In this document: one piece after another, positions 597 through 1,211 of the stretch
Layout: every line of letters starts with the position of its first letter
Numbering within the stretch: position 1 is the stretch's first letter
Program-made: the position numbers and the translations under genes
Origin: Minisyncoccota bacterium
GTDB lineage: Bacteria > Patescibacteriota > Minisyncoccia > Phycocordibacterales > UBA1006
Assembly: GCA_021129535.1 (NCBI GenBank)
Contig: JAJOLB010000040.1
Location: 1 to 25,973 of the forward strand
Reading direction: 5' to 3'
Length of the DNA stretch: 25,973 bases
The notes under the pieces: model-generated
Seen by the model: only the letters and a program-made list of their open reading frames with translations
Told to the model about the DNA's origin: nothing
Database searches by the model: none

Positions 597-1211
597 ATGC
601 AAAAAAACAAGCACCTAACAAACAGGCAAGGGGTAAAATTTGACCAATTAGGGAGACAAAATAACGTTTCCAGAGCAAAAATGAAAGAATTTTTTAGTCA
701 ATTTAAACTAAGAAACCTTCAAAATTTAAAATCTAAAAAAATAATTTCAATTCCTAAAATGTCGTTTAATCCAGGTGAATTTTTTATTCACAGAAGAAAC
801 GATAATGGAATTCAGCTATGGTTAAGTGATGATATCCAAAATATATTTTTACCACTTTTAAGTAAAAATATTGAATTTGATGGGGTTGACCTTGAAAAGT
901 TGAGATTGAAAAAAAGGTTAAGCGATTTTGATATTCAAAAAAAAATTGGAAATCAAATCCAAAACCCTGATGATATCGCAGCTGAAATTAAACATTTAAT
1001 ATCCCAACAACCAAAAGGTAAAAAAAATGGCGATTTAGATGTTCCATATATTTCACATATATTCTATTTTGAGTATATGGATCGTGTTTGGTCTGTGTGG
1101 CTGCGCTGGGGTGATGACGGTGAGGAGTGGGACATGGATTGCGACGAGACGAACGCGTTCGAGTGGAATGTTGATGATTCGGTGTTTAGTCCTGCAACTG
1201 ATAAATCTTAG
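597..1211 (+). CDS. Putative DGR target (variable) protein of a CPR-type family
   Basis: 204 aa. C-terminus (SHIFYFEYMDRVWSVWLRWGDDGEEWDMDCDETNAFEWNVDDSVFSPAT) resembles, from recall, Parcubacteria DGR target C-termini (xNIFY...VxxxW...WxVxAx...W...xxVFS). Abrupt codon/GC shift in the last ~45 codons. Confidence 0.7.
   Translation: MQKNKHLTNRQGVKFDQLGRQNNVSRAKMKEFFSQFKLRNLQNLKSKKIISIPKMSFNPGEFFIHRRNDNGIQLWLSDDIQNIFLPLLSKNIEFDGVDLEKLRLKKRLSDFDIQKKIGNQIQNPDDIAAEIKHLISQQPKGKKNGDLDVPYISHIFYFEYMDRVWSVWLRWGDDGEEWDMDCDETNAFEWNVDDSVFSPATDKS
1062..1200 (+). other. Putative DGR variable region (VR)
   Basis: 44 consecutive codons (1062-1193) with no A at the third position; GC 65/120 (54%) in 1081-1200 versus 28/120 (23%) in 661-780; W-D-M-D-C-D pattern compatible with a W-N-x-N-x-N (AAY) template. 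Confidence 0.7.

Follow-up and report, generated by a model that had tools for sequence, protein, structure and literature searches.

The gene at positions 597 to 1211 of the window (the whole contig of 25,973 nucleotides analysed here) ends in a segment that strongly supporting sequence comparisons identify as a genuine DGR variable region (VR), carried by a member of a known family of CPR targets. The gene is probably, at about 60%, a frozen and abandoned DGR target, stranded only recently: its VR is the product of past diversification, and the elements that diversified it would no longer be available to it.

The window is one of the 52 contigs of a 483-kb MAG, 80.5% complete. Since a genome from its family bears the label Candidatus Nomurabacteria, the source is a member of the Patescibacteria/CPR, an ultra-small, Nomurabacteria-like bacterium. 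The neighbouring genes, normal under translation table 11, encode a HI0933-like flavoprotein, a Fe/Mn superoxide dismutase (SOD), RNR subunits, a MutY-like glycosylase, an AddA-like helicase, UppP and GAPDH. Metagenome runs containing the sequence include hydrothermal-vent, aquatic and plastisphere samples.

Composition of the 3' end of the gene

The ORF at 597-1211, on the + strand, encodes 204 aa, according to the ORF listing. An abrupt switch in the composition of its last codons had been reported in a preliminary description of the window, made from the sequence alone, and all of its figures are reproduced by the present counts. None of the 44 codons at 1062-1193 ends in A, versus 68 of the 155 upstream codons of the same ORF; the chance of 44 such codons in a row is 0.56^44, about 8e-12. 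Glutamate is always encoded by GAA upstream (5 out of 5) and always by GAG in the tail (5 out of 5). The proportion of adenine is 17% in the tail and 44% in the remaining gene; GC content is 54.2% at 1081-1200 and 23.3% at 661-780. The former is the GC maximum among all 120-nt segments of the window (mean 32.9%, sd 6.9%), although values of 50-52% are found in conserved parts of the GAPDH and helicase genes. The shift begins at the FYFEYM motif, at 1062-1079. The compositional switch is thus confirmed as real and beyond chance.

The rest of the MAG was inspected for similar segments, and none was retained: the other long stretches in which no codon ends in A correspond to antisense frames, low-complexity sequences, membrane frames or runs of N, and a GC-rich tail scaffolded by Trp residues is not present among them.

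Comparison with a complete cassette

A complete cassette, where target, template repeat (TR), bAvd and RT are found together, is present on contig JAOULM010000003.1 of G036, a Candidatus Nomurabacteria MAG of the same taxonomic family. When the genomes of this family were searched, the G036 target was found to share 37% identity with the 204-aa protein over residues 32-202 (E 1e-23). The G036 target gene extends from 168 to 800 and contains its VR at 655-773; the TR, a non-coding, Asn-codon-rich copy of the last 39 codons of the target, is located at 1118-1236, 463 nt further downstream. The bAvd gene (PF22296) is encoded on the strand opposite to the target, and the RT is recognized as RVT_1. 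VR and TR differ at 15 positions, all of them (15/15) adenines of the TR. A second fragment of the RT C-terminus (residues 204-289, 91% identical) is found on a separate contig of the same MAG, at G036:C12:4371-4628; it could represent a second copy of the cassette or an assembly split.

The VR of the window, 40 codons at 1080-1199 on the + strand (DRVWSVWLRW...SVFSPAT; 54% GC, 17% A), aligns to the VR and TR of G036 without gaps and in register, with common Trp residues at positions 10, 17 and 29 and a common SP(A/E)T end. Agreement with the G036 TR is found at 48 of the 84 non-A positions (57%), versus 11 of the 33 A positions (33%), and eight of the nine window codons opposite AAY codons of the TR are NNY. 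Ten codons had been proposed as variable in the preliminary description: in the alignment they are opposite AAA (position 9), AAY (positions 11, 14, 18, 20, 22, 25, 27 and 33) and GAT (position 30), so that all ten fall on codons of the G036 template containing mutable adenines. Given this alignment, and the location of the candidate codons on template adenines, the composition of the tail indicates that its reading as a DGR target was correct; the homology to the target of a complete cassette, the gapless VR alignment and the adenine footprint all argue for the same identification.

The target family and its predicted fold

The 204-aa protein has no Pfam match at E<=10, and neither a signal peptide nor a membrane segment is obvious in it. 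A phmmer search against 1.84 billion representatives found 67 cluster representatives at E<=1e-3, among which no common Pfam domain is present; homology at the protein level extends through the tail across the 67 clusters. By alignment, the FYFEYM motif (1062-1079, + strand), which precedes the VR, corresponds to the conserved N-I-F-Y-(F/V) strand of the family framework. The closest full-length homologue, P0003 (42% identity), is likewise an orphan, and is identical in two sources. A word-index search with the protein returned two close relatives only, and two such searches restricted to the tail returned only strain variants, and no other proteins. Neither the JGI metagenome scan nor that of GTDB contigs yielded relatives of the window protein.

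Among the 401 genomes of the order, members of the family were found by profile search in 47, and a DGR-type RT in 149. Twenty-nine family loci were scanned for a TR: in eight of them a local one is present, with mismatches almost only at adenines (from 13/13 to 23/24), while the remaining ones feature no TR within about 1.4 kb. Depletion of adenine in the VR is found throughout the family (12-16%, versus 26% upstream), orphan members showing the same values as TR-linked ones.

The preliminary description had suggested a C-type lectin-like fold. The AF2 model, built from the 67 sequences, has a pLDDT of 87, which rises above 90 over residues 40-200, and the tail is folded into the domain. An exhaustive search by VIA-align reports as top matches a FGE paralogue (1y4j), PvdO, CarF, the Treponema DGR protein TvpA (2y3c), EgtB and many CTLDs; these matches span residues 45-202, with Z scores of 4.0-4.9, under the noise guide of about 7-8 given for the tool. 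Foldseek found no match in the PDB (best E 0.037), and only uncharacterised proteins among the AFDB clusters; a profile search of PDB sequences with the protein found nothing. The list of FGE, TvpA and CTLD matches is coherent, but their Z scores are weak (<=4.9) and the Foldseek search of the PDB was empty. On the predicted model, a C-type-lectin-like fold is plausible.

Search for a retroelement

According to the preliminary description, no second copy of the tail is present in the window, and this holds also for the whole 483-kb MAG, where a BLAST search with 1040-1215 was empty. The near-copy expected to differ at template adenines, next to an RT, was accordingly not found by BLASTN in this 80.5%-complete MAG; nor did a search tolerant to changes at adenines detect a template matching the VR on either strand. 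As to the proteins, PF00078 (RT) has no match in the MAG, tblastn with the RT and bAvd of G036 gave nothing below E 1, and an RT protein search across the taxonomic family found none in the MAG of the window. The 330-nt spacer at 1212-1543, which runs to the convergent flavoprotein gene, was compared to the G036 cassette by blastn and tblastx: only chance matches were found, and no remnants of TR, Avd or RT. A firm absence of TR and RT may not be claimed, because the MAG is 80.5% complete and its missing part could contain them.

The presence of the retroelement is patchy also among relatives: a strong DGR-type RT is found in 4 of the 17 genomes of the same genus. A family member, but no RT of any kind, is found in five near-complete genomes of the order, of which two consist of a single contig. 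When family and RT searches are cross-tabulated, about 18 of the 46 family-positive genomes have no detectable RT.

Variation between strains and signs of decay

In five independent assemblies, which come from three samples or more, the VR is represented by essentially a single allele, each assembly showing 0-3 point differences, as read from assembled contigs, which hide minority variants. Contigs from run X2 are identical to the window over 1032-1197; those from run X1 differ at 1081 (A>G) and 1148 (G>A). Contig L009 (ERZ23488011) differs at 1081, 1174 (A>G) and 1179 (T>G), and contig L051 (ERZ23488236) at 1174, 1179 and 1207. Altogether, differences at the VR end are found at five sites, four of them inside 1080-1199; by rough counts, 4 sites fall in the 120 nt of the VR and about 9 in the roughly 1160 nt outside it, a somewhat higher density in the VR. 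Among the strains, all four allele combinations of sites 1081 and 1174 occur, for which recombination or recurrent change is needed. At 1179, the T/G difference involves a base other than adenine in the sequences of both strains. A single retrohoming event re-draws many of the roughly 20 adenine sites simultaneously; the differences found here look like point mutation, perhaps with the addition of recombination, and not like retrohoming.

In the sister strain represented by L051, a CAA>TAA change at codon 122 (Q122*) splits the gene. Taken jointly, L009 and L051 feature 8 nonsynonymous and 2 synonymous changes, over 501 and 111 sites respectively, corresponding to a dN/dS of about 0.9.

A further copy of the gene is found in a related species, with 82% identity in rplB, on contigs L010 and L011. 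Its identity to the window is 92.7% over 710-1065; similarity ends at 1065/1066, shortly ahead of the VR, where a stop codon directly follows, and the copy features no VR. Both contigs terminate within 46 nt. The matching segment corresponds to 2473-2828 of L010, and to its counterpart in L011, the N-terminal 38 codons and everything past 1065 being unrelated. Such an arrangement suggests, at the level of sequence comparison, that the scaffold module has passed between species, by lateral exchange or by recombination within the gene. An alternative genetic code was also considered and rejected: the genes neighbouring the target in the window are normal under table 11, and reading TGA as Gly adds merely 17 codons to the tail of L010.

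A second breakpoint is found upstream of the gene. Contigs L009 (1-1439) and L051 (1-1481) match the window at 98-99% identity from 358 up to their ends, at 1324 and 1261 respectively. Upstream of 358 their context is wholly different, and consists of a MGMT-like DNA_binding_1 gene and a 75-aa ORF, of which only the C-terminus is common with the window ORF at 2-433. At this junction, X1 and X2 are of the L009 type, while a more distant relative, in X8, spans 358 as the window does. The differing contexts imply either that a recombination breakpoint is located at the target gene or that the gene moves from one context to another.

The 5' leader of the target gene, at 505-556, contains a perfect 11-bp inverted repeat, TGTTCACAGTA ... 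TACTGTGAACA, inside which a second one is found, AATTCT-ATTG-AGAATT. Both are located within the block 98-99% identical in L009 and L051, and could function as an operator, as a leader hairpin, or as the terminator of the upstream gene.

Repeated elements downstream of the gene

Directly after the stop codon, at 1214-1278 on the + strand, an array of (T/C)TT(T/G)GA units is found, with a period of 8 nt; its regular part extends over 1235-1272 and its core units are at 1243, 1251 and 1259. L009 features one additional unit, TTTGATAC, at 1235. The array is followed, at 1287-1320 on the same strand, by a weak AT-rich hairpin and then by a T-rich run, in the position where a strong GC-rich hairpin is present in all other family loci. 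The best 44-nt fold is -11.2 kcal/mol in the window, versus -18.5 to -30.7 in 29 other family loci (28 from the order search, plus the L052 locus), and the region 1180-1300 folds no better than its shuffles.

In nearly all family loci the stop codon is followed by 2-6 tandem 8-nt units, with core CTTTGA, CTTGGA or CTCTGA, and then by a strong hairpin and a T-run. Over 30 family loci, the density of core motifs is 16.3/kb in the 90 nt after the stop versus 0.8/kb elsewhere, an enrichment of about 20-fold; 44 motifs were observed, versus 2.5 +/- 1.6 in shuffles. Only one strand carries the motif, and 18 of 21 pairs are spaced by exactly 8 nt. TR-linked and orphan loci (L014-L043, L052) carry the array alike, and comparable arrays follow the VRs of other target families located beside RTs in the same bacterial family (L045-L049). 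No array is seen in the sequence after the G036 TR. Array and hairpin are, by sequence, a candidate for a DGR target-recognition element or for a regulatory site; a description of the pair was not found in the literature searched, non-exhaustively.

At the far end of the spacer a different hairpin is found, AAAAAACAAACGAAAATAATTCGTTTGTTTTTT, at 1506-1540, between the convergent target and HI0933-like genes. It is AT-rich, with runs of A and T on its flanks, and looks like a bidirectional terminator.

Status of the target gene

Two statuses had been envisaged by the preliminary description, that of a remote target still served by its template and, as a fallback, that of a frozen, abandoned one. 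The former is disfavoured by the results: no TR, RT or Avd is found in the MAG, the VR is nearly invariant, and a sister strain carries a nonsense allele. The fallback best fits the same set of observations. As shown by the homology to a complete cassette, the VR at 1080-1199 was once overwritten by cDNA from an adenine-rich TR, whose adenines were read at random; this accounts for the absence of A at third positions, for NNY codons at former AAY sites, for the exclusive use of GAG for Glu and for the GC spike. The cassette of TR, bAvd and RT, which is not found in the genome, would no longer lie beside the gene in this lineage; after its loss, the tip would stop changing and the gene would drift to loss. 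We infer freezing and drift from the missing components, from the near-invariance of the VR, from the near-neutral substitutions and from the broken alleles of close relatives. The loss would be recent, because the VR keeps its A-depleted, GC-rich composition in a genome of 33% GC.

Some observations speak against freezing. The VR composition has not decayed toward the AT bias of the genome, the 3' array is intact, differences are somewhat denser in the VR than outside, assembled contigs hide minority variants, the MAG is incomplete, and 4 of the 17 genus genomes feature a DGR RT. The main rival is a live remote target, whose VR would be rewritten in trans, rarely or at a low rate per adenine, by a cassette located in the unassembled part of the genome, roughly 20%, or on another replicon. 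Such an explanation is possible, if clearly less probable than a frozen target. Non-adjacent, remote targets are documented (PMC5758913, PMC8144416); in the family itself, nine examined loci have no local TR despite an RT in their genome, and DGR RTs are found in 149 of the 401 genomes of the order and in 4 of the 17 of the genus. The intact 8-nt array after the stop, the unameliorated VR composition, the slight enrichment of strain differences in the VR and their four allele combinations may be seen in the same light. Against it stand the lack of TR, RT and Avd in 483 kb, the single VR allele of five assemblies, from at least three samples and with 0-3 point differences, and the T/G change at 1179, where adenine is present in neither strain; the nonsense allele and the near-neutral dN/dS, moreover, oppose a maintained function.

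Explanations not involving a DGR are unlikely. In one of them, which we regard as quite improbable, the copy descends from family members that no retroelement ever served, and the tail is either a foreign or recombined 3' module, or a Trp/Gly/Asp-rich domain which is GC-rich by itself. The gene is indeed mosaic, as shown by the 92.7% identity of 710-1065 to a species with 82% identity in rplB, ending at 1065, and by the nearly identical L009 and L051 sequences, with another upstream context and a break at 358; about 18 of the 46 family-positive genomes, in addition, have no detectable RT. The tail, however, matches a proven VR/TR pair in register, and it is precisely at the template adenines that it departs from the template; amino-acid content does not explain the lack of A at the third position of 44 codons, in a gene where its frequency is 44%; and orphan family members are as depleted in adenine as TR-linked ones. 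GC islands in AT-rich genomes often mark RNA genes, and three frames are open over 1040-1280, yet a structured non-coding RNA, or another overlapping element with an incidental open frame, is barely credible here, given that no Rfam family is matched in the window, that protein homology extends through the tail in 67 clusters, and that AF2 folds the tail into the domain with pLDDT >90.

For the frozen target, as for the other orphans of the family, a further role may be imagined, by analogy with known systems. Array and hairpin could mark the targets of CPR DGRs, as a functional analogue of the IMH and cruciform, and orphans would then be addressable docking sites, open to re-activation by an incoming cassette. 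We regard this suggestion as rather doubtful; if true, the patchy and mosaic distribution of targets and retroelements would follow from re-activation by cassettes whose template matches. The conserved array and hairpin are a candidate, open to testing, for the signal by which CPR DGRs recognise their targets.

On a more general level, the results indicate that a DGR variable region may be recognized from base composition alone, even when no retroelement accompanies it. If the favoured reading holds, the gene documents one instance of the fate of a target deprived of its diversifier, with a frozen tip, nearly neutral substitutions, and sister alleles in which a stop has appeared or the VR has been lost. 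About 40% of the family-positive genomes of the order, closed ones included, have no RT, so that stranded targets seem to be a regular outcome of DGR turnover in reduced genomes. Such targets matter when DGR activity is inferred from target counts.

Comparison with known systems

The DGRs of CPR bacteria form a clade of their own (DGR clade 2), with targets mostly devoid of recognisable domains, which may be new variants of the C-type lectin fold (Roux et al. 2021, PMC8144416); in an earlier survey, the "CPR set" was described as mostly of B3 architecture, with unclassified VR classes (Wu et al. 2018, PMC5758913). The window gene shares with cellular CPR DGRs, such as that of JAOULM010000003.1, the target family: in both, the protein is small, no domain or membrane segment is recognised in it, and the VR, about 118 nt long, is at the C-terminus. 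Also common to both are the scaffold of the VR, with its Trp spacing and its SP(A/E)T end, the depletion of adenine and the layout of array and hairpin. It differs from them in that TR, bAvd and RT are not adjacent to the gene and were not found in the MAG, in that the hairpin is weak, and in that the VR is nearly invariant among samples.

The DGR of Treponema denticola has seven additional, non-adjacent targets (Wu et al. 2018, PMC5758913). Like them, the window gene contains a VR and is not adjoined by a retroelement. Remote targets elsewhere, however, are assigned by a TR in the same genome, from which they feature A-to-N differences only, and none was found for the window.

In Mtd of Bordetella phage BPP-1, the VR is marked by a target-specific IMH and by an inverted repeat (Guo et al. 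2011, PMC3240598; summarised in PMC5758913). The window gene likewise features a C-terminal VR followed by downstream elements that may act in cis, and its fold is possibly C-type-lectin-like, on a weak fold match (Z <=4.9) and an empty Foldseek search of the PDB. It differs from Mtd in being a cellular gene, and not one for a phage tail fibre, and in having an 8-nt tandem array and a hairpin in place of a GC-rich IMH and a cruciform.
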